From the IMG/VR virus record IMGVR_UViG_3300010157_000016, positions 1 through 35,893 of that record: a stretch of DNA of 35,893 bases. The stretch is one strand, 5' to 3'. The position numbers and the translations under genes were made by a program. This DNA is from a virus. Shown piece after piece: positions 746 to 28,475 of this stretch (the first letter of the stretch is position 1; every line of letters begins with the position of its first letter). Below the pieces are notes generated by a model. The model made no database searches. It was not told the origin of the DNA and saw only the letters and a list, made by a program, of their open reading frames with translations.

Positions 746-1663
746 TTAGCCGAAGAACGTAGCCCCCGCCATAGCGCCCTGACCCAAAAGACCCGCAAGC
801 TGCCCATTTCTAGCGGCAGAGTTTTGGTTGTTGGCGTTCCATGCGGAAAGATTGCCGTTATAGCTGTTGTAAATATTGCCCGCGATGTTTGATGGCTGCA
901 TATTGTAACTGGATGTCGGCCCCTGTGGAATCCCGATTGCTGGCCGTCCCTGCAAGATGGCGGACAGCTCATTCAGCGGCTGACTGCGTTGCATGAGTAG
1001 GTCCGACACACTTTGTTGGTGCGCAGTTTGACCAAGGCCAAATAGGCGGGATTGTTCGTTTCCGCCAGCCGCAATCGCATTATTCATGGCGGTTTGATAG
1101 GTATCCGCCTTCTGCCGATTGTAATTGTCCATCGCATTATTATAGGCGGTTGATCCCTGCGTTATCCCTTGATTGGCAAGCAGGCTATCCAAGGCCGTCT
1201 GGCTCTGGGCAAACTGCGGATCAAGCCGAGACGCCTGCTGATTATAAACCGAATCGCGGACGTTGTTGGCGTCGCCCACAAGGTCGCTGGCATTATATGC
1301 CGGGGTGGATGCGCCGATATTAAATGGCTGCTGCTGCCCAAGTTGATCTGAAAGCCCCAGCCCGATCTTGCTCAAGTTGCTTAATTGGGCCTGCCCATCA
1401 GGTGATAATGTCGTGATCTGCGTCCGGTTGGGCGTGCCGATGTCGCCGCTCCATGTAACCGATCCGTTCGGGCCTTGTGTGTTGTATTGATTGTATTTGG
1501 CGGATGTCTTTATGGCGTCAAGATTGGCCTGAGACTGAGCCTGAGCGACGGCGTAGGGGTCCGGCGCTGCTGGAGCGCTGCCGCCGCCGCCCTTGCCCTG
1601 CTGCTGCTGGCAGGGTTGATCCATCCATATAATATCATTGGTTTTTAGGCTATCCATCTGCAA
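746..1663 (-). CDS. Q/N/G/A-rich virion protein (internal/ejection-type?), 305 aa
   Basis: Long ORF in the structural operon with low-complexity Q/N-rich composition like its neighbours. No catalytic motif seen. Confidence 0.6.
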   Translation of the reverse strand: MQMDSLKTNDIIWMDQPCQQQQGKGGGGSAPAAPDPYAVAQAQSQANLDAIKTSAKYNQYNTQGPNGSVTWSGDIGTPNRTQITTLSPDGQAQLSNLSKIGLGLSDQLGQQQPFNIGASTPAYNASDLVGDANNVRDSVYNQQASRLDPQFAQSQTALDSLLANQGITQGSTAYNNAMDNYNRQKADTYQTAMNNAIAAGGNEQSRLFGLGQTAHQQSVSDLLMQRSQPLNELSAILQGRPAIGIPQGPTSSYNMQPSNIAGNIYNSYNGNLSAWNANNQNSAARNGQLAGLLGQGAMAGATFFG

Positions 1664-2067
1664 TCCTCTTTCAGCAATCCATAGCTGACGGAGGTTGCTC
1701 CATCGATTCGCGCCTTAGGGTGCGCCCCCTCCTGCTTGAAGCCAATGCCGCTCATTAATTTTATCGCTCTGTTGCTGTCAACAGAACAAACGGCAGTGAC
1801 TCTGGCGCATCCAAGCTGGACAAAAGGATAGTGAAAAAGCGCCCTTAAAACACCACGTTGAATCCATCTTGGATTTTCTGTGGCGATAGACATTTCTATA
1901 TCACATTTACGGTAATTGTGAAATACCACAACACCAATCAAGGCCCCATCAAGATCCATGCCAATGGAAGCGCATCTTCCGAACCCCCCGGCCCCCTTGG
2001 CCTCTGGTAGCCGGTCTTCTGCCCATTGCTGTAATCCGTCCTGATTCTCAAAAACCAGCCGGATCAC
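1645..2067 (-). CDS. GNAT-family N-acetyltransferase-like protein, 140 aa
   Basis: GNAT-like layout: LIGVVVFHNY..., then RGVLRALFHYPFVQLGCARV, then KLMSGIGFKQEG. ATGA-type overlap with the upstream gene at 2064-2067. Confidence 0.55.
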   Translation of the reverse strand: MIRLVFENQDGLQQWAEDRLPEAKGAGGFGRCASIGMDLDGALIGVVVFHNYRKCDIEMSIATENPRWIQRGVLRALFHYPFVQLGCARVTAVCSVDSNRAIKLMSGIGFKQEGAHPKARIDGATSVSYGLLKEDCRWIA

Positions 2068-3587
2068 AATATTCCTCCAGCCTCATAAACAAAATCAGTC
2101 GATCTCATTGTAAGAGACATGCCGCCGACGCTCACACGAACATGCAGAGTGGCGCAATAACCGACTCCTGTGACCGACTGCCAATCCTTGCTTATTGCCT
2201 CAGCCGCCGCCCATGTTCCAATGCCCCACACGGCGCTACCCCAAGTTCCTCCACTAGGGGCCGAGGTTGATGGTGTCGCGCTTGATATGCTGTCATCAAA
2301 ATCAAGATTCATATCAAGGGAGACCGCCACAGATCCGGAGGCGCTAAATACCGGGCGGGCCATCTTGAAAAGCTTCTGCCTCCCCGTTTCACCAAAGTAC
2401 GAGAACGCGGGCTTTACATCAGCATAGATGGCGTTACCGTTGTCATAATACCCATTGTCAAACAAATAAACCTTGCCGTCAGTCCCGCCAAAATAAGCGT
2501 TATCCTTGTACACAACCCAGCAATTGGCATTCATCCCGGTAAAGCGGCACGCCGCCCCAGTGATATTGTTGAATACATATTGATAGGCCGTCTTGTTGTA
2601 AACCGCCGGGATATTAAATATCAGCATCGGCCCCTTGGGATAAAGCAGGGGTTGCCAGCCAAAATTAGAGCCGTAAGATCTGATCGCGTTATTGACGGCA
2701 GTGTTGATTTTTTCAGAGATGGAGACGGCTCCAGCCCCCAGTCTATCGATTGGCAGGACACGCGAGAGCTGAACAAACCCGTCTTGAGTGATGATGGCGG
2801 CGTCAGAGGCGAGCTTCATTGCAAACCGCGTCCCGATGGGCTTGCCGATTCGGTATGTGCCGACTCTGGCCCAGGTTGTTGCGCTACTTGGATCAATCCC
2901 CTGATAAACGGCAACTTCGCCCTCGGATGTCATAAATACGCAGAGGTCCTGCATCCCGCCGCCACCGTCTCTGGACCATGTGACCATCCCCGCCAGATAC
3001 CCGCCGAGGCGGAACGTCCCCGAGAGATCAAACGATGACGCGGCTCCGCCGATGGTATTGACCGGCATATACCAAAATTTAAGACTGTTTTTCTCGCCAA
3101 ATAATAAGCGGGACTGTGCGACATTGATCCACGCTAGATTGTTGAGCGTCGGCCCGGTTATGGTGGTTGCTGCCCAATTTGTGCCGTCGAAAATCTGGGG
3201 GGCGTCGCTTCCATTGACGCAGATTAAAAATGCGCCTCCAGCCGTCCCGAAATTCACATACTCCCATCTATTTGACGCCAGACTGGAGACGGCAGCCGCA
3301 CCAACAGCGCCTGTCGATGACACGTCATAAATTCCGCCGTTTCCACAGGCAAACATCTTGGACGCGCTGCCAGATGTGTAGGTCATCAGGGTTTCAACGG
3401 CACCAGATCCAATCCCCGTCGCATAGGAGGTAAATCCGGGCCGAACCTTGATTTGGTCGGTCGATGGAAACCAGTTGTCCATAACAATAGCATCAGTTTC
3501 CGGCATATCCGCCAGAGCGTCACGAGCGTTCCAGCCGCCTACGGGAGCCGCCCGGCTGGATGATCTGGTTTGCGGTTGCGAGGGCAT
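2064..3587 (-). CDS. Virion/tail-associated structural protein, 507 aa (function not assignable)
   Basis: Large ORF in the tail part of the structural operon, beta-rich G/A/S/T composition, start coupled to the upstream stop at 3587. Confidence 0.6.
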   Translation of the reverse strand: MPSQPQTRSSSRAAPVGGWNARDALADMPETDAIVMDNWFPSTDQIKVRPGFTSYATGIGSGAVETLMTYTSGSASKMFACGNGGIYDVSSTGAVGAAAVSSLASNRWEYVNFGTAGGAFLICVNGSDAPQIFDGTNWAATTITGPTLNNLAWINVAQSRLLFGEKNSLKFWYMPVNTIGGAASSFDLSGTFRLGGYLAGMVTWSRDGGGGMQDLCVFMTSEGEVAVYQGIDPSSATTWARVGTYRIGKPIGTRFAMKLASDAAIITQDGFVQLSRVLPIDRLGAGAVSISEKINTAVNNAIRSYGSNFGWQPLLYPKGPMLIFNIPAVYNKTAYQYVFNNITGAACRFTGMNANCWVVYKDNAYFGGTDGKVYLFDNGYYDNGNAIYADVKPAFSYFGETGRQKLFKMARPVFSASGSVAVSLDMNLDFDDSISSATPSTSAPSGGTWGSAVWGIGTWAAAEAISKDWQSVTGVGYCATLHVRVSVGGMSLTMRSTDFVYEAGGIL

Positions 3588-4288
3588 CAGCCGAAGTTTC
3601 CCTCTGGAACATTGATTTGCAGCAGGCTGCTTGTGCGGCTCCCTGCCGTAAGGGTTGGGGACCCCTCCTGTGACGCCGACGCCTTGGCTTTCTCGTCAAG
3701 GTATTGCTGATAAGCACCCTCCCAAGTCGACAGGCCCTTTGTCTTGAGCCATCGCCATGTTATCCCCTTCGACATGAGCGTCTCTGGAATGATGCCAATA
3801 TCGGTATCATCTGCCCATGAGCTGCGTTTGGTTGATCCATCCGAGGACGAACACCATTTATTTGACAGGTATTCATAGGCAACGGTTTCGCCTGCTGTTG
3901 GCGATGGCGTTATTAAAATCTGTGATCCTCGAACCCGAAACCAGTAATTTACCGTTGCCGCCAGATTGAGCGCTTGCCGGGCCTGCCATTCTTGCGCCGT
4001 GATTGGCCCGAATATCTTTCTTCGCCGCGTCCGGTTATACATTGAATCGTCAACGAATCGGTCAAAGTCAACAGGGATTGCGCTGGTTTGCGCCGCCTGT
4101 GCCAGTGTCGTAAAGGTCGTCTCTGTGATGATCTCCTGCCACTGAACGGCACGAGCCAGCTCCTGCCCCTCTTGATTGGCGAGAACCAGAAGCTCTTTAT
4201 ATTTCAGATCGGTATTGGTGATAATCGTTGATGGTACTGCAAGTCCGATGCGGGTAGCTGCGTCCTGAACCATGCTTAAAAGAGACAT
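3587..4288 (-). CDS. Structural protein, 233 aa (adaptor or tail-tubular-type position)
   Basis: ORF between head and tail genes. Called by synteny only. Confidence 0.55.
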   Translation of the reverse strand: MSLLSMVQDAATRIGLAVPSTIITNTDLKYKELLVLANQEGQELARAVQWQEIITETTFTTLAQAAQTSAIPVDFDRFVDDSMYNRTRRRKIFGPITAQEWQARQALNLAATVNYWFRVRGSQILITPSPTAGETVAYEYLSNKWCSSSDGSTKRSSWADDTDIGIIPETLMSKGITWRWLKTKGLSTWEGAYQQYLDEKAKASASQEGSPTLTAGSRTSSLLQINVPEGNFG

Positions 4289-20612: not shown

Positions 20613-20870
20613 ATGACTGAATACCAACAAATTCTAGAGGCCAAGGCCGACATGAAGTGCGCCATTTTCGTCGCCGTCATAGACGGATGCGCCAAAATCA
20701 ATGCATTGGCTTGGGAGCCGTGCAGCCATAGCCTGATAATGGCTCAAATCGACGATGTGATTGATGACGCTATACATGCGGCGCTCACGTCTGCTGATTT
20801 CGGCGAGGATGACATCGCGCTAGGAGCTGGTAAGAACGCCATCAAGATCAGGAATGAGGTGGCGTCATGA
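20613..20870 (+). CDS. Small acidic hypothetical protein, 85 aa
   Basis: First ORF after P2. By my count, 14 D/E against 6 K/R. ATGA overlap with the next gene. Confidence 0.6.
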   Translation: MTEYQQILEAKADMKCAIFVAVIDGCAKINALAWEPCSHSLIMAQIDDVIDDAIHAALTSADFGEDDIALGAGKNAIKIRNEVAS

Positions 20871-23065
20871 CTATTACGACTCAAGATTTACCAGAAATTT
20901 TGAAAAACCACTTGCTGTGGATTAACGGCGAAAAAGGCGGGGTGCGTGCCGTCCTGAGCACTGCCGACCTGATCGGTTCCGACCTGATCGGTGCCGACCT
21001 GAGCGGTGCCGACCTGAGCACTGCCGTCCTGAGCCGTGCCGACATGCGCGGTGCCGTTTTGAGCGGTGCCAACATGTGCGGTGCCAACATGTGCGGTGCC
21101 AACATGATCGGTGCCGTCCTGTGCGGTACAAACATGTGCGGTGCCGTCCTGAGCGGTGCCAACCTGAGCGGTGCCGACATGCGCGGTGCCGACCTGAGCA
21201 CTGCCGACCTGAGCACTGCCGACCTGATCGGTGCCTACCTGAGCAGTGCCGACCTGAGCACTGCCAACATGATCCGTGCCGTCCTGAGCGGTGCCAACAT
21301 GCGCGATGCCGACCTGAGCGGTGCCGACCTGAGCGGTTCCGTCCTGAGCGATGCCGACCTGAGCGATGCCGACCTGAGCACTGCCGACCTGAGCGGTGCC
21401 GTCCTGATCGGTGCCAACATGAGCCGTGCCGACATGTGCGGTGCCGTTTTGAGCGGTGCCAACATGTGCGGTGCCAACATGTGCGGTGCCAACATGATCG
21501 GTGCCGTCCTGTGCGATACCAACATGTGCGATGCCGACCTGAGCCGTGCCGACCTGAGCACTGCCGATATGCGCGGTGCCGACCTGAGCGGTTCCGTCCT
21601 GAGCACTGCCGACCTGATCGGTGCCGACCTGATCGGTTCCGACCTGAGCGGTGCCGACATGCGCGGTGCCGTCCTGATCGGTGCCAACATGAGCGATGCC
21701 GACCTGAGCCGTGCCGACCTGAGCGATGCCGTCCTGAGCGATGCCGACCTGAGCCGTGCCGACCTGAGCACTGCCGTCCTGCGCGGTGCCGACCTGATCG
21801 GTTCCGACCTGATCGGTGCCGACATGCGCGGTGCCGTCCTGAGCGGTGCCAACATGTGCGGTTCCAACATGTGCGGTGCCAACATGATCGGTGCCGTCCT
21901 GAGCGGTGCCGAGATGCGCGATGCCGACCTGAGCGGTGCCGTCCTGAGCGGTGCCGTCCTGAGCGATGCCGACCTGAGCCGTGCCGACATGCGCGGTGCC
22001 GTCCTGATCCGTTCCGACCTGAGCCGTGCCGACCTGAGCCGTGCCGTCCTGAGCACTGCCGTCCTGCGCGGTGCCAACATGATCGGTGCCGTCCTGAGCA
22101 CTGCCGACCTGAGCGATGCCGACCTGAGCAGTGCCGTCCTGAGTACTGCCATCCTGCGCGGTGCCAACATGTGCGGTGCCAACATGTGCGGTGCCAACAT
22201 GATCGGTGCCGTCCTGAGCGGTGCCAACATGCGCGATGCCGACATGTGCGGTGCCGACATGCGCGGTGCCGTTTTGAGCGGTGCTAACATGCGCGATGCC
22301 GACCTGAGCACTGCCGACCTGAGCGGTGCCAACATGATCGGTGCCGACCTGAGCGGTTCCGACCTGAGCGGTGCCAACATGATCCGTGCCGACTTGAGCA
22401 CTGCCGACCTGAGCGATGCCGTCCTGAGCACTGCCGACCTGAGCGGTGCCAACATGAGCCGTGCCGACATGCGCGATGCCGACCTGAGCCGTGCCGTCCT
22501 GATCGGTGCCGTCCTGATCCGTGCCGACATGCGCGGTGCCGTCCTGAGCGATGCCGACCTGAGCGGTGCCGACATGCGCGGTGCCGTCCTGAGCGGTGCC
22601 AACATGATCGGTTCCGACCTGAGCGGTGCCGTCCTGAGCGGTGCCAACCTGAGCGGTGCCGACATGCGCGGTGCCGTCCTGAGCGGTTCCGTCCTGAGCG
22701 GTGCCGACCTGAGCGGTGCCGACATGTGCGGTGCCGTCCTGAGCGGTGCCGTCCTGAGCGGTGCCAACATGAGCCGTGCCGACCTGAGCGGTGCCGACCT
22801 GAGCGGTGGTATTAAAATAAACGGCTCAGTAATAGAGCTGGGGCCGATTGGCTCCCGCAATGACACTGTGCTTTTCTACCAAACAGATTGTGGCGTTTAC
22901 GTTCAAGCTGGTTGTTTTTTAGGGGGACTCTCCGAGTTTTTTGACGCCGTTGAAAAAACGCATGGCGAAAATTCGCATGGATTCGCCTATCGGGCGGTGA
23001 TTACAATGATCGAGACAGTTTGGGCTGATTTTATTGCTAAAAAATTTAATGAGGTGGCGGCATGA
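20867..23065 (+). CDS. Giant pentapeptide-repeat protein (732 aa; 124 consecutive A[DNV][LM][SRCI][GTDRS] units plus a C-terminal globular domain)
   Basis: Residues 28-647 are uninterrupted 5-aa repeats (ADLSG, ANMCG, AVLSG...). N-terminal cap ILKNHLLWINGEKGG. The 85-aa C-terminal non-repeat region is GPIGSRNDTVLFYQTDCGVYVQAGCF... Confidence 0.9.
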   Translation: MTITTQDLPEILKNHLLWINGEKGGVRAVLSTADLIGSDLIGADLSGADLSTAVLSRADMRGAVLSGANMCGANMCGANMIGAVLCGTNMCGAVLSGANLSGADMRGADLSTADLSTADLIGAYLSSADLSTANMIRAVLSGANMRDADLSGADLSGSVLSDADLSDADLSTADLSGAVLIGANMSRADMCGAVLSGANMCGANMCGANMIGAVLCDTNMCDADLSRADLSTADMRGADLSGSVLSTADLIGADLIGSDLSGADMRGAVLIGANMSDADLSRADLSDAVLSDADLSRADLSTAVLRGADLIGSDLIGADMRGAVLSGANMCGSNMCGANMIGAVLSGAEMRDADLSGAVLSGAVLSDADLSRADMRGAVLIRSDLSRADLSRAVLSTAVLRGANMIGAVLSTADLSDADLSSAVLSTAILRGANMCGANMCGANMIGAVLSGANMRDADMCGADMRGAVLSGANMRDADLSTADLSGANMIGADLSGSDLSGANMIRADLSTADLSDAVLSTADLSGANMSRADMRDADLSRAVLIGAVLIRADMRGAVLSDADLSGADMRGAVLSGANMIGSDLSGAVLSGANLSGADMRGAVLSGSVLSGADLSGADMCGAVLSGAVLSGANMSRADLSGADLSGGIKINGSVIELGPIGSRNDTVLFYQTDCGVYVQAGCFLGGLSEFFDAVEKTHGENSHGFAYRAVITMIETVWADFIAKKFNEVAA
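20948..22807 (+). repeat. 15-bp periodic coding repeat array (124 units) with higher-order ~390-bp periodicity
   Basis: 1860 nt = 124 x 15. The block GCCAACATGTGCGGTGCCAACATGTGCGGTGCCAACATGATCGGTGCCGTCCT recurs at 21068, 21458, 21848 (1 mismatch) and 22163. Confidence 0.9.
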
Positions 23066-26449: not shown

Positions 26450-26656
26450 ATGACACGTCAAATGTTCAAAATTAGATGCTCTGAACCCGCTTTAGACCTC
26501 GCCTACGGATTTATGACGGACCTGCGCTATGGCAATCGTCTGGGTATCGACCCCGGAAATTATAGCACACAGGATTTTGGCTCGATCACGCTCAGGGCTT
26601 GGCGTAGAGTCGATGGAGGAATACGGATTTTAGAGATCGAGAGGGGATTAGCGTGA
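26450..26656 (+). CDS. Hypothetical protein, 68 aa
   Basis: GAAGGATGA SD. Its stop overlaps the GTG start of the methyltransferase. Confidence 0.55.
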   Translation: MTRQMFKIRCSEPALDLAYGFMTDLRYGNRLGIDPGNYSTQDFGSITLRAWRRVDGGIRILEIERGLA

Positions 26657-27471
26657 AACTTCTACTTCTCGACTTATTTAGCGGTATCGGTGGGTTCTCT
26701 CTCGGCCTCGAACGCACTGGCGGGTTTAAGACCGTCGCGTTTTGCGAGATTGAGCCGTACCCGCGCCAAGTATTGGCAAAGCACTGGGAAGGAGTACCGA
26801 TTTATGAAGATGTGCGAACACTCTCAGCAGCTAGACTTGCCGCTGACGGAATCGAAGTCAATGCGATTTGTGGAGGATTCCCCTGCCAAGACATCAGCCT
26901 CGCCGGTAAAGGCGCAGGATTGGCAGGGGAACGGTCAGGACTATGGCGCGAGTACGCCCGTCTTATTGGCGAGATTAGACCGACATACGCGATTATGGAA
27001 AACGTCGCAGCGTTGCTTGTTAGAGGAATGGGAGAAGTTCTCTCAGACATTTCCTCGTTCGGGTATGACGCAGAATGGCATTGCATACCAGCTTCAGCCA
27101 TTGGTGCGCCTCACAGACGCGACAGAATATGGCTCATTGCCTACCCCATGCGCAAGGGATTGGAAAGACACGGGGGGGGCAAGCACATTCCTCCGAAAGT
27201 CACCGAGTCTTGGAGCAATAGTTATGATGTTTCCGACGCCAACAGTGAGCGGGAACTACAACCGAGTCGGTTGTTCCGCACACTCAGGCGACGGATTGGC
27301 AACAGTTGTGAAGAAACTAGAGGGTGGTGGAGTTTTGAACCAGACGTGGGTCGAGTGGCTGATGGGGTTCCCCGCAGGGTGGACCGACTTAAAGGACTAG
27401 GAAACGCAGTCGTGCCGCAAATCCCAGAGATGATCGGAAACGCAATATTGGAATATGAGGGATTCACATGA
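26653..27471 (+). CDS. DNA (cytosine-5)-methyltransferase, short type, 272 aa (orphan)
   Basis: Motif I DLFSGIGG, motif IV GGFPCQDIS, motif VI MENVAALL, motif VIII GAPHRRDRIW, motif X LGNAVVPQI. No adjacent nuclease gene. Confidence 0.9.
   Translation: MKLLLLDLFSGIGGFSLGLERTGGFKTVAFCEIEPYPRQVLAKHWEGVPIYEDVRTLSAARLAADGIEVNAICGGFPCQDISLAGKGAGLAGERSGLWREYARLIGEIRPTYAIMENVAALLVRGMGEVLSDISSFGYDAEWHCIPASAIGAPHRRDRIWLIAYPMRKGLERHGGGKHIPPKVTESWSNSYDVSDANSERELQPSRLFRTLRRRIGNSCEETRGWWSFEPDVGRVADGVPRRVDRLKGLGNAVVPQIPEMIGNAILEYEGFT
26804..27400 (+). other. Long +1-frame ORF nested in the C5-MTase gene (198 aa from ATG 26804; open from 26690), with MTase variable-domain-like motifs. Coding status unresolved.
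   Basis: AAGGAG 26789-26794 lies 9 nt before the ATG. The translation contains PRSGMTQNGIAYQL, LPTPCARDWKD, FPTPTVSG and LNQTWVEWLMGFPAGWTDL. Confidence 0.35.
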
Positions 27472-27674
27472 CACACCACATCCCCACCATTGCCGACTGC
27501 AAGAGCCAGCACTATCGGCCCCGCTATTGGATGAGCAACATGGCAAGGCCCATGACACTAGACGACATCGAAGCAAGCCGCTGGTGCAGAGCGTTCCACG
27601 GCAAAGAACAGCGGGCAAAGTTGCAGGGCAATGCCTGCGATGGATGCCTGCGAATACCGGAGGAACAGAGATGA
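27468..27674 (+). CDS. Hypothetical Cys-containing protein, 68 aa
   Basis: ATGA overlap with the MTase stop at 27468-27471. Confidence 0.5.
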   Translation: MTHHIPTIADCKSQHYRPRYWMSNMARPMTLDDIEASRWCRAFHGKEQRAKLQGNACDGCLRIPEEQR

Positions 27675-27720
27675 CCGATAAGTTAGATTTAACAAAACCC
27701 GTACGCGTGGAGTGGGAATA

Positions 27721-28152
27721 ATGACTAACAAAATTGACCAGCTACTCGTCGTGCAGCAAAACACGATTATAGAGCTGAAACGGCAGTTAGCTGAGAGCAT
27801 TACGGGTTTGGCGATGGCTTGCGCAAATGATGTCTTAAGCGAGGGGATTATTCGGCGGTTAGAACGGGAGTTGCTTGCCTGTAGAACCGCTACGGCAGGC
27901 ACTGATGCACAGCCCGCCAAGCTCCCAGAATCAAACGGTGATGGCGGCGTATACTTGGCTTTGGAAGATACCGGAATGGGTCCTGAGGCATTCGCAAAGG
28001 ACCACCGAAAGGGTGCGGTGATAACCAAAATGGCTCTTGCATACTGGAGGTGGTGTCACCTTCGCGTTATTAAGGTGTCCCGCGAGGAGTTTAATACCTT
28101 GTGGCCGGATGCGCCTATGCCCGTGTTGCTAAGGGGAGGAGCCAAGCCATGA
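27721..28152 (+). CDS. Hypothetical protein, 143 aa
   Basis: ATG 27721 overlaps the upstream TAA. The track ORF 27712..28152 is trimmed. Confidence 0.55.
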   Translation: MTNKIDQLLVVQQNTIIELKRQLAESITGLAMACANDVLSEGIIRRLERELLACRTATAGTDAQPAKLPESNGDGGVYLALEDTGMGPEAFAKDHRKGAVITKMALAYWRWCHLRVIKVSREEFNTLWPDAPMPVLLRGGAKP

Positions 28153-28475
28153 CAACACTAGCCATAAGTACATGCCAAAAATGTGGCTACGTCACCGAGA
28201 CTAGATCGAGCAACATCGAAGCAATGATAGAGAAGCGCGTACTCAAGCAGGCGCTCAGCTGGGGAGACGACGCGCTGTATTGCGGGCCTTTTATTATCGG
28301 GTTTGTAGACATTGATGTTTACTTCAATCAGTTTAGCGGCGGCTTGCTTTGCGACATTTACGAAGGGGGTTGTTCTCGCCAGTTTGAGACGGAGGAGAAA
28401 GCCCGCGAAGCTGTCACGGCAGCAGCCTTGAAAATGATAGATGATGGACTGACGTGGATATGCTTACCATCATGA
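28149..28475 (+). CDS. Hypothetical protein, 108 aa; last gene of the rightward unit
   Basis: ATGA overlap at 28149-28152. N-terminal CQKCGY half zinc-ribbon. Confidence 0.55.
   Translation: MTTLAISTCQKCGYVTETRSSNIEAMIEKRVLKQALSWGDDALYCGPFIIGFVDIDVYFNQFSGGLLCDIYEGGCSRQFETEEKAREAVTAAALKMIDDGLTWICLPS

Follow-up and report, generated by a model that had tools for sequence, protein, structure and literature searches.

The viral record IMGVR_UViG_3300010157_000016 was analysed over its whole length of 35,893 nucleotides, here called the window. It contains a gene for a short cytosine-5 DNA methyltransferase (26653-27471, plus strand) that carries, on the same strand and in another reading frame, a second long open reading frame. 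The first of these, frame A, begins with GTG and encodes 272 amino acids, in which motifs I to VIII are followed by a linker and then by motif X. The second, frame B, lies +1 relative to frame A and is open for 236 codons (26690-27400); the list of open reading frames enters it from an ATG at 26804 (26804-27400, plus strand, 198 amino acids). Below, it is proposed that the two encode the alpha and beta subunits, respectively, of one enzyme.

An earlier note on this DNA, made from its letters alone, had pointed to the overlap. Its coordinates, its motifs, its Shine-Dalgarno-like site, its frame-B stop and its C-TTA-AAG heptamer are all correct when checked against the sequence. So are the paired readings that it drew from the two frames, VSDANSER with FPTPTVSG and VGRVADGVPRRVDRLK with WVEWLMGFPAGWTDLK, and its statement that frame B is the longest nested same-strand open reading frame in the window outside the gene of a repeat protein.

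Frame A is, of course, easily recognised. Motif positions, Pfam and an alignment with Dcm place its catalytic core at 26677-27126, from motif I (FSGIGG, 26677-26694) through motif IV (GFPCQ, 26875-26889) and motif VI (ENV, 26998-27006) to motif VIII (HRRDR, 27112-27126), all on the plus strand; the four motifs by which a cytosine-5 methyltransferase is identified are thus all present. The Pfam family PF00145 matches residues 6-171 with an expectation value (E) of 1e-39, using profile positions 4-168 of 324, which correspond to motifs I to VIII. The family phrog_363 matches the full length (E 5e-81). With hhalign, frame A aligns to residues 86-290 of E. coli Dcm (E 4e-13), and this alignment also ends after motif VIII. 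Neither the target recognition domain nor the motif IX that should lie between motifs VIII and X was found in frame A by the Pfam and Dcm alignments, which bears out the earlier note, where frame A was said to have motifs I, IV, VI, VIII and X and no box resembling motif IX. Motif X itself (LGNAVVPQ, 27397-27420, plus strand) is left unaligned by the Pfam profile; it is almost invariant among 99 homologues and is modelled as a confident helix.

The alignment of these 99 homologues was used to model alpha alone with AlphaFold2. The predicted local distance difference test score (pLDDT) exceeds 90 for most of residues 1-170, falls to 38-60 at residues 171-252, and returns to 71-93 at residues 253-272, where the motif X helix occupies residues 256-269. 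Foldseek finds M.HaeIII, M.HhaI and a methyltransferase of prophage CP-933R with this model. Here, the alignments cover only about 167 columns, with a template modelling score (TM-score, relative to the target) of about 0.44, which means that about half of the canonical enzyme is missing from alpha. Frame A therefore shares with M.HhaI, M.HaeIII and Dcm, all of PF00145, motifs I, IV, VI and VIII and the fold of the large domain, together with a box that reads as motif X, but, unlike them, it has no small domain and no motif IX in the same frame. In place of these stands a linker that aligns poorly among homologues, with an identity of 0.12 and an entropy of about 1.8 bits at all three codon positions. 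Its sequence is apparently unconstrained.

Frame B is recognised less easily. An AAGGAG (26789-26794, plus strand) resembling a Shine-Dalgarno sequence lies 9 nucleotides 5' of its ATG. From 26987 to 27136 the DNA is doubly constrained, reading ENV to motif VIII in frame A and TRLWKTSQRCLLEEWEKFSQTFPRSGMTQNGIAYQLQPLVRLTDATEYGS in frame B. There follows a variable region read in frame B (27137-27334), which is linker in frame A and shows no sign of selection there; it includes the boxes LPTPCARD (27137-27160) and FPTPTVSG (27230-27253). Next comes a box resembling motif IX, LNQTWVEWLMGFPAGWT (27335-27385), which overlaps EPDVGRVADGVPRRVD in frame A. The heptamer C-TTA-AAG (27388-27394), in frame A a codon string for Leu-Lys-Gly, stands shortly before the frame-B stop, a TAG (27398-27400) lying over the opening codons of motif X. 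All of these lie on the plus strand. Tryptic peptides predicted from the frame-B translation include SPSLGAIVMMFPTPTVSGNYNR and DWKDTGGASTFLR.

The question is whether this second frame persists among relatives. A set of 80 viral loci was assembled whose frame-A products are 49-62% identical to that of the window over their full length. In all 76 genes analysed, no stop interrupts the +1 frame between about codon 60, immediately ahead of motif IV, and a point 15-25 codons short of the frame-A stop. Five loci missed by the first motif filter are open likewise, and none of the 80 viral loci has lost the open +1 frame. Its longest open stretch averages 243 of 288 codons across the 76 genes; the +2 frame averages 14 stops.

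As a null model, the codons of frame A were shuffled synonymously within the interval from motif IV to the IX-like box. Stops in the +1 frame number 2 in 71 genes, against 3.7 expected in each gene, where the probability of finding none is 0.034 per gene; the +2 control has 8.8 stops, close to the 8.6 expected. The earlier note had asked whether the +1 frame of homologues is stop-free more often than expected, and the answer is yes. The overlap is far beyond chance. The converse also holds. When the codons of frame B are shuffled synonymously, frame A should acquire 2.15 stops per gene across the variable region, and it has none. At locus L091, frame B has 396 amino acids with about 10 WPTP boxes, and frame A remains open across about 290 low-complexity codons until EPDVGRVAHGVPARVDRLRALGNAIVPQ.

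The two frames are not selected in the same places. Over frame-A residues 1-110, the entropy at third codon positions is about 1.6 bits, which is saturated and is what ordinary coding in a single frame delivers. At residues 112-161 it falls to 0.7-1.2, indicating double constraint. At residues 225-244 (EPDVGRVADGVPRRVD in frame A, and LNQTWVEWLMGFPAGWTD in frame B), variability is highest at the first position of the frame-A codon (1.0, versus about 0.5 at the second and third); this first position is the wobble position of frame B. From RLK-LGNAVVPQ onward, the third position of frame A is again at 1.4-1.6. By these entropies, the suppression of synonymous variation in frame A that the earlier note proposed to look for across the overlap shows at residues 112-161 and 225-244, and does not show over residues 1-110, where that variation is saturated. 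An alignment built on frame B gives the same picture, being frame-A-like until LTDETGSG and frame-B-like from LWPTPTA to GWTDL, with the frame-B wobble position the most variable from LWPTPTA on. The WPTP boxes, for their part, require invariant third positions in frame A.

Amino acid identity was also compared over 400 random pairs of homologues in all three frames. In the region of motif I, frame A is conserved (0.73) and frame B (0.28) is no better than the +2 control (0.31). Between motifs VI and VIII the values are 0.71 for frame A, 0.54 for frame B and 0.46 for the control. In the IX-like block the order of the two frames is reversed, with frame B at 0.705, frame A at 0.60 and the control at 0.54, and at motif X it reverts (0.79, 0.33 and 0.34 for frame A, frame B and control). 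Selection along the gene is therefore a mosaic: frame A over motifs I to VIII, frame B from LPTP to EWLMGFPxGWT, and frame A again over motif X.

To what family, then, does frame B belong? Scans against Pfam and NCBIfam assign it to none, and the profile of its homologues matches no sequence of the PDB. Matches do exist to phrog_1008, a family annotated "DNA methyltransferase" (E 7e-26), and to 3868 database proteins of 200-400 amino acids that carry no Pfam domain. What these proteins represent is whole methyltransferase genes translated in the +1 frame. At their N-termini, SLISSVELAASASGS is what the DNA for LDLFSGIGGFSLG spells in that frame, and several of their features are shadows of frame A: EDSPAKTSA shadows GGFPCQDIS, WRTSQ or WKTSQ shadows ENV, and the tail SATPLSRKS shadows LGNAVVPQ. 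Two features are not shadows. One is the [WFL]PTPxAxD box, present in 2 to about 10 copies. The other is a near-invariant box, LNPTWVEWLMGFPxGWT (more generally LNPxWVEWLMGFPxGWT), to which the LNQTWVEWLMGFPAGWT of the window belongs and which resembles the canonical motif IX box LTPRECARLMGFP. The earlier note had ascribed such PTP boxes to longer, phage-type cytosine-5 methyltransferases; no separate single-chain family of this kind emerged, and the proteins in question are the same nested frame-B open reading frame, called by gene finders and without a Pfam domain.

Homologues also offer frame B places to start. Their frame-B ATGs recur at -71/-68, -65, -29 and -14 nucleotides from motif IV, often with GAGG, AAGG or GGAG 6-9 nucleotides on the 5' side.

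Both frames are conserved open, selection is mosaic, and the layout is widespread. From this we infer that frame B is translated, that alpha and beta assemble, and that beta sets specificity. The locus most probably encodes a cytosine-5 DNA methyltransferase of two polypeptides, drawn from two overlapping frames. Here, alpha would be the catalytic large domain that binds S-adenosylmethionine, made of motifs I to VIII and the motif X helix. Its linker would tether motif VIII to motif X, with a sequence that is unselected and yet must stay free of stops. Beta would start internally at the ATG at 26804, behind AAGGAG, with an N-terminal extension that is overprinted on motifs IV to VIII and only loosely constrained. 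Its variable region with [WFL]PTPxAxD boxes, followed by the LNPxWVEWLMGFPxGWT box in place of motif IX, would form the small DNA-recognition domain that alpha lacks. By analogy with M.EcoHK31I, the two chains would assemble into an active, sequence-specific enzyme.

That precedent deserves a description. M.EcoHK31I, from E. coli HK31, recognises YGGCCR and is a cytosine-5 methyltransferase of two polypeptides (Lee, Kam and Shaw, 1995, as related in PMC2836561 and PMC3404938). In the same published accounts, its alpha chain has motifs I to VIII and X, its beta chain has motif IX, and both are required; several internal methionine codons can serve as the start of beta, whose N-terminal 42 or so residues are dispensable except for association with alpha (PMC2836561; PMC3404938). 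Artificial fragments of several cytosine-5 methyltransferases also complement each other (PMC3404938). As the enzyme is described there, its likeness to the window is twofold: the second polypeptide of the window (26804-27400) lies wholly inside the alpha gene (26653-27471) in an alternative frame, and in the family studied here the frame-B start varies and its N-terminus is weakly constrained. Unlike the M.EcoHK31I of these accounts, the gene in the window is a phage orphan with no restriction enzyme adjacent to it. No copy of M.EcoHK31I was recognisable in the E. coli genome collection, which gave nothing but a distant relative in a prophage. RefSeq classes this gene (L084, 1500-2261, prophage of E. 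coli PCP07014) as the pseudogene of a methyltransferase, containing an internal stop, and its frames A and B are interrupted at one and the same site between motifs VI and VIII.

Other split systems are instructive as well. M.AquI, from Agmenellum quadruplicatum, likewise has one chain with motifs I to VIII and a second with the distal variable region and motif IX. Its subunit genes are separate, not nested, and its beta chain also carries motif X. In the window, by contrast, motif X is in the alpha frame. Phage lambda nests the gene of one spanin subunit within that of the other, in the +1 frame (Rz/Rz1), and Rz1 is short. There too a two-subunit complex of a phage has one subunit in the +1 frame of the other, but the proteins and their function are unrelated to those considered here, where the overlap extends over about 200 codons of an enzyme.

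Nature has, it seems, rearranged this layout on occasion. One locus, L173, on the complete chromosome of Paraburkholderia caffeinilytica wqa52 (NZ_CP186552.1, region 1500-3600), has a frame-B open reading frame of 411 amino acids, in which WPTP boxes are followed by LNPAWVEWLMGWPVGWTDL and then by a second C-terminal module of the frame-A type (…RIEALGNGQVP). Motifs IX and X therefore stand in one frame. Frame A there stops soon after motif VIII and has three stops in its linker, so that the locus serves as a natural control; no other of the 173 loci is arranged in this way. L173 is intermediate with respect to M.AquI, since its frames overlap and yet both IX and X are in beta. The 5' end of L173 also looks duplicated, with DLVFFAGHARS upstream of the real ELVLFAGAGGG, and the locus may represent an overlap partly resolved by duplication.

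Fusions of another kind occur at L088, L089 and L090 (proteins P0208, P0122 and P0131), all on short metagenome contigs, where motifs I to VIII are fused in frame to the frame-B variable region and the IX-like box. An insertion or deletion within the variable region produces the fusion and leaves motif X in a third frame; in L089, motif X is lost. They are either real variants or assembly errors. A search for single-chain relatives with a hybrid assembled from frame A, frame B and frame A again returned only frame-A-type proteins and these three fusions. A further candidate, P0112, was set aside, being on a nanopore-style contig and having the look of an indel artefact. P0039 is another protein in which motif I is fused to frame B.

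In a subfamily at L083 (972-1886), L085 (1012-1710) and L086 (990-1868), represented by P0036 and P0061, the frame-B open reading frame spans the whole methyltransferase gene. It starts 4 nucleotides after the frame-A start, with a conserved N-terminus MSWLFSQALVEEYS, and has a conserved tail, LEMDKFQxW, over motif X of frame A (GNGQVP). These features suggest double constraint even at both ends of the gene.

The window also contains a run of eight G (27172-27179, plus strand), within the overlap and just 3' of motif VIII; it is the sole run of G or C of at least eight in the window. Loss of one G would join motifs I to VIII of alpha in frame to the variable region of beta with its IX-like box. 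No run at this position is conserved among the homologues, and G9 and G10 runs lie elsewhere in L075 and L017. Phase variation or transcriptional slippage at the run is possible.

Several points weigh against the proposal of a two-chain enzyme. The start of frame B has no universal position among homologues, and the codon for Tyr51, a weak test of that start, is TAT in 50% of the genes, compared with 35% for tyrosine elsewhere. Modelled alone with AlphaFold2, frame B gives a pLDDT of only 59; neither its sequence nor its fold finds a solved structure, a Foldseek search with a model of that confidence being, of course, meaningless. The frame-B profile aligned to Dcm by hhalign finds a single alignment, to motif IX of Dcm (PRRLTPRECARLMGFEA), and this is not significant (E 0.48). 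The Pfam profile covers neither motif IX nor motif X, whether given an artificial hybrid (motifs I to VIII from frame A, then frame B, then motif X from frame A) or two C-terminal halves. Because of these two results, the assignment of the frame-B box as motif IX, which rests on the resemblance of motifs, is plausible but not proven. The published accounts place the predicted target recognition domain of M.EcoHK31I in its alpha chain, unlike here, where the selected variable region with its WPTP boxes is in beta, and the likeness between the two systems is one of layout, compared by published description and not by sequence. What the comparative data show is selection on both frames, from which translation of frame B and formation of the complex are predicted.

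Other explanations must therefore be weighed. One is that frame B is an untranslated shadow whose length and conservation follow from the constraints and codon usage of frame A. Much of its N-terminus does mirror frame-A motifs, with an identity no higher there than in the +2 frame. Yet codon shuffling predicts several stops per gene where almost none occur, the IX-like block varies most at the wobble position of frame B and is better conserved in frame B than in frame A, and the WPTP boxes fix third positions of frame A; the shadow is barely credible. The earlier note had offered an evolutionary shadow as one of its three readings. Because frame B is under selection of its own, this is excluded as the whole story, but the part that has short and long layouts related by frameshift is real, as L088-L090 and L173 illustrate. 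A real protein with a function unrelated to completing the methyltransferase, such as a regulator or an anti-defence factor, is a less remote alternative, although unlikely. It would suit a frame B that has no Pfam or NCBIfam family, no structural match and a stand-alone model of low confidence. It does not suit a C-terminal box that resembles motif IX and stands immediately before motif X, an alpha that has no small domain, the near-confinement of frame B to these methyltransferase genes across many phyla, or the in-frame fusion of frame B to motif X in L173; the M.EcoHK31I precedent fits these better.

Two further explanations involve frameshifting. One would make a single polypeptide by following frame A to motif VIII, shifting +1 into frame B, and then returning to frame A by a -1 shift to take in motif X, which would give the canonical order of I to VIII, target recognition domain, IX and X. 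The mosaic of selection matches this order exactly, and the product of a -1 shift at C-TTA-AAG would read ...GWTDLKGLGNAVVPQ. Such frame-hopping leaves unexplained, however, why the frame-A linker is kept open, even for the long stretch in L091, and why the open stretch of frame B extends about 100 codons to the 5' side of motif VIII. Nor is there a conserved slippery site at either junction: about 20 of 74 homologues have the heptamer (CTT-AAA-G), with CTT-AGA, CTG-CGG and the like in the rest, and frame B does not stop at a constant position. For these last two reasons a conserved -1 frameshift at C-TTA-AAG is rejected, and with it, as a conserved mechanism, the frameshifted isoforms that formed the second reading of the earlier note. 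A single polypeptide made by hopping is accordingly very improbable. In this phage only, a -1 slip at C-TTA-AAG might still produce an extra, minor isoform in which beta is fused to motif X (...GWTDLKGLGNAVVPQ...), much as in M.AquI beta. A-AAG is a shift-prone A-site motif of the kind found at E. coli dnaX-type sites; here the motif stands two codons ahead of the stop in frame B, and L173 shows that a natural beta chain can have IX and X in one frame. Against this, re-pairing in the P site from UUA to CUU would be poor, no stimulatory element was identified, and the heptamer is a by-product of frame-A codons for Leu-Lys-Gly that most homologues do not share. This minor isoform is improbable. 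The remaining reading of the earlier note, an overprinted second gene such as a subunit of a split methyltransferase, is the one favoured by the open frame, by its own codon signature, by starts with Shine-Dalgarno-like sites, and by M.EcoHK31I.

No restriction endonuclease gene was found beside the methyltransferase gene; its neighbours encode a single-stranded DNA-binding protein, an Erf-like annealing protein, an exonuclease and small open reading frames without a family, and the gene thus sits in a replication and recombination module of a contig that is a tailed-phage genome. The enzyme is therefore an orphan, which probably serves self-protection.

The layout is not confined to this phage. 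The same nested +1 open reading frame is found in the methyltransferase genes of Mycobacterium phage Che9d (gp80), Acinetobacter phage ABMM1 (gp60), and phages of Microcystis, Synechococcus and Vibrio. A scan of genomes gives at least 575 loci, in Proteobacteria, Actinomycetota, Verrucomicrobiota, Planctomycetota, Chloroflexota, Patescibacteria, Bacillota and other phyla. A profile search for open reading frames of the frame-B type retrieves 42,882 representatives of clusters at 50% identity with E at or below 0.001, and 25,581 at or below 1e-10. For 72 genome loci whose IX-like box could be identified, strict patterns of the four frame-A motifs were applied to the -1 frame; all four are there in 51, and three in most of the others. 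Frame-B-type open reading frames thus appear to be nested almost always in methyltransferase genes.

Annotation has treated the two frames unevenly. On this same contig, the Joint Genome Institute (JGI) called the 198-amino-acid frame-B product (P0001), and on other contigs frame A (P0121). In GenBank, Vibrio phage 1.291.O is annotated with frame B (AUS01725.1, a hypothetical protein), and most other phages with frame A. The family phrog_1008 appears to have been built from frame-B products. The problem is systematic, since gene callers choose either frame, and a large "dark" family without domains is in fact the nested frame. A layout known from one E. coli enzyme in 1995 is here very common and unannotated; literature searches found no description of it as a general property of phage methyltransferases.

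What does this mean? The two-chain layout would explain why short phage methyltransferases seem to have no recognition domain and no motif IX. It would offer a long same-strand overlap, of about 200 codons, in which both products are apparently parts of one enzyme and in which the frame under constraint changes readably along the DNA. A broader proposal, which is tentative and has perhaps one chance in three, is that the nested beta is ancient and pervasive in a large clade of short cytosine-5 methyltransferases of phages and prophages, and acts as a detachable specificity subunit, whose array of [WFL]PTPxAxD boxes would grow and shrink between 2 and about 10 copies and thereby change the target without touching the catalytic subunit. 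Were this so, beta would be the counterpart, among cytosine-5 methyltransferases, of the specificity subunit HsdS, encoded by overprinting, and annotation that calls one frame, sometimes the "wrong" one, would systematically miss half of each enzyme. Predicting the methylation specificity of a phage from the annotated protein alone would fail. Those expressing such enzymes, or recoding them synonymously, must of course preserve both frames.

Around the methyltransferase gene, small open reading frames at 26450-26656, 27468-27674, 27712-28152 and 28101-28475 have no PHROG match. The second of these overlaps the frame-A stop by 4 nucleotides (ATGA), which suggests that it is translationally coupled to frame A. 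Farther away lies the gene of the repeat protein already mentioned (20867-23065, plus strand, 732 amino acids), whose product matches several PHROG families of unknown function, with phrog_7713 matching in up to 17 separate stretches. This gene holds a nested open reading frame on the same strand (21076-22287, plus strand, 403 amino acids) and another of 543 amino acids in antisense, both probably side-effects of the composition of the repeats.

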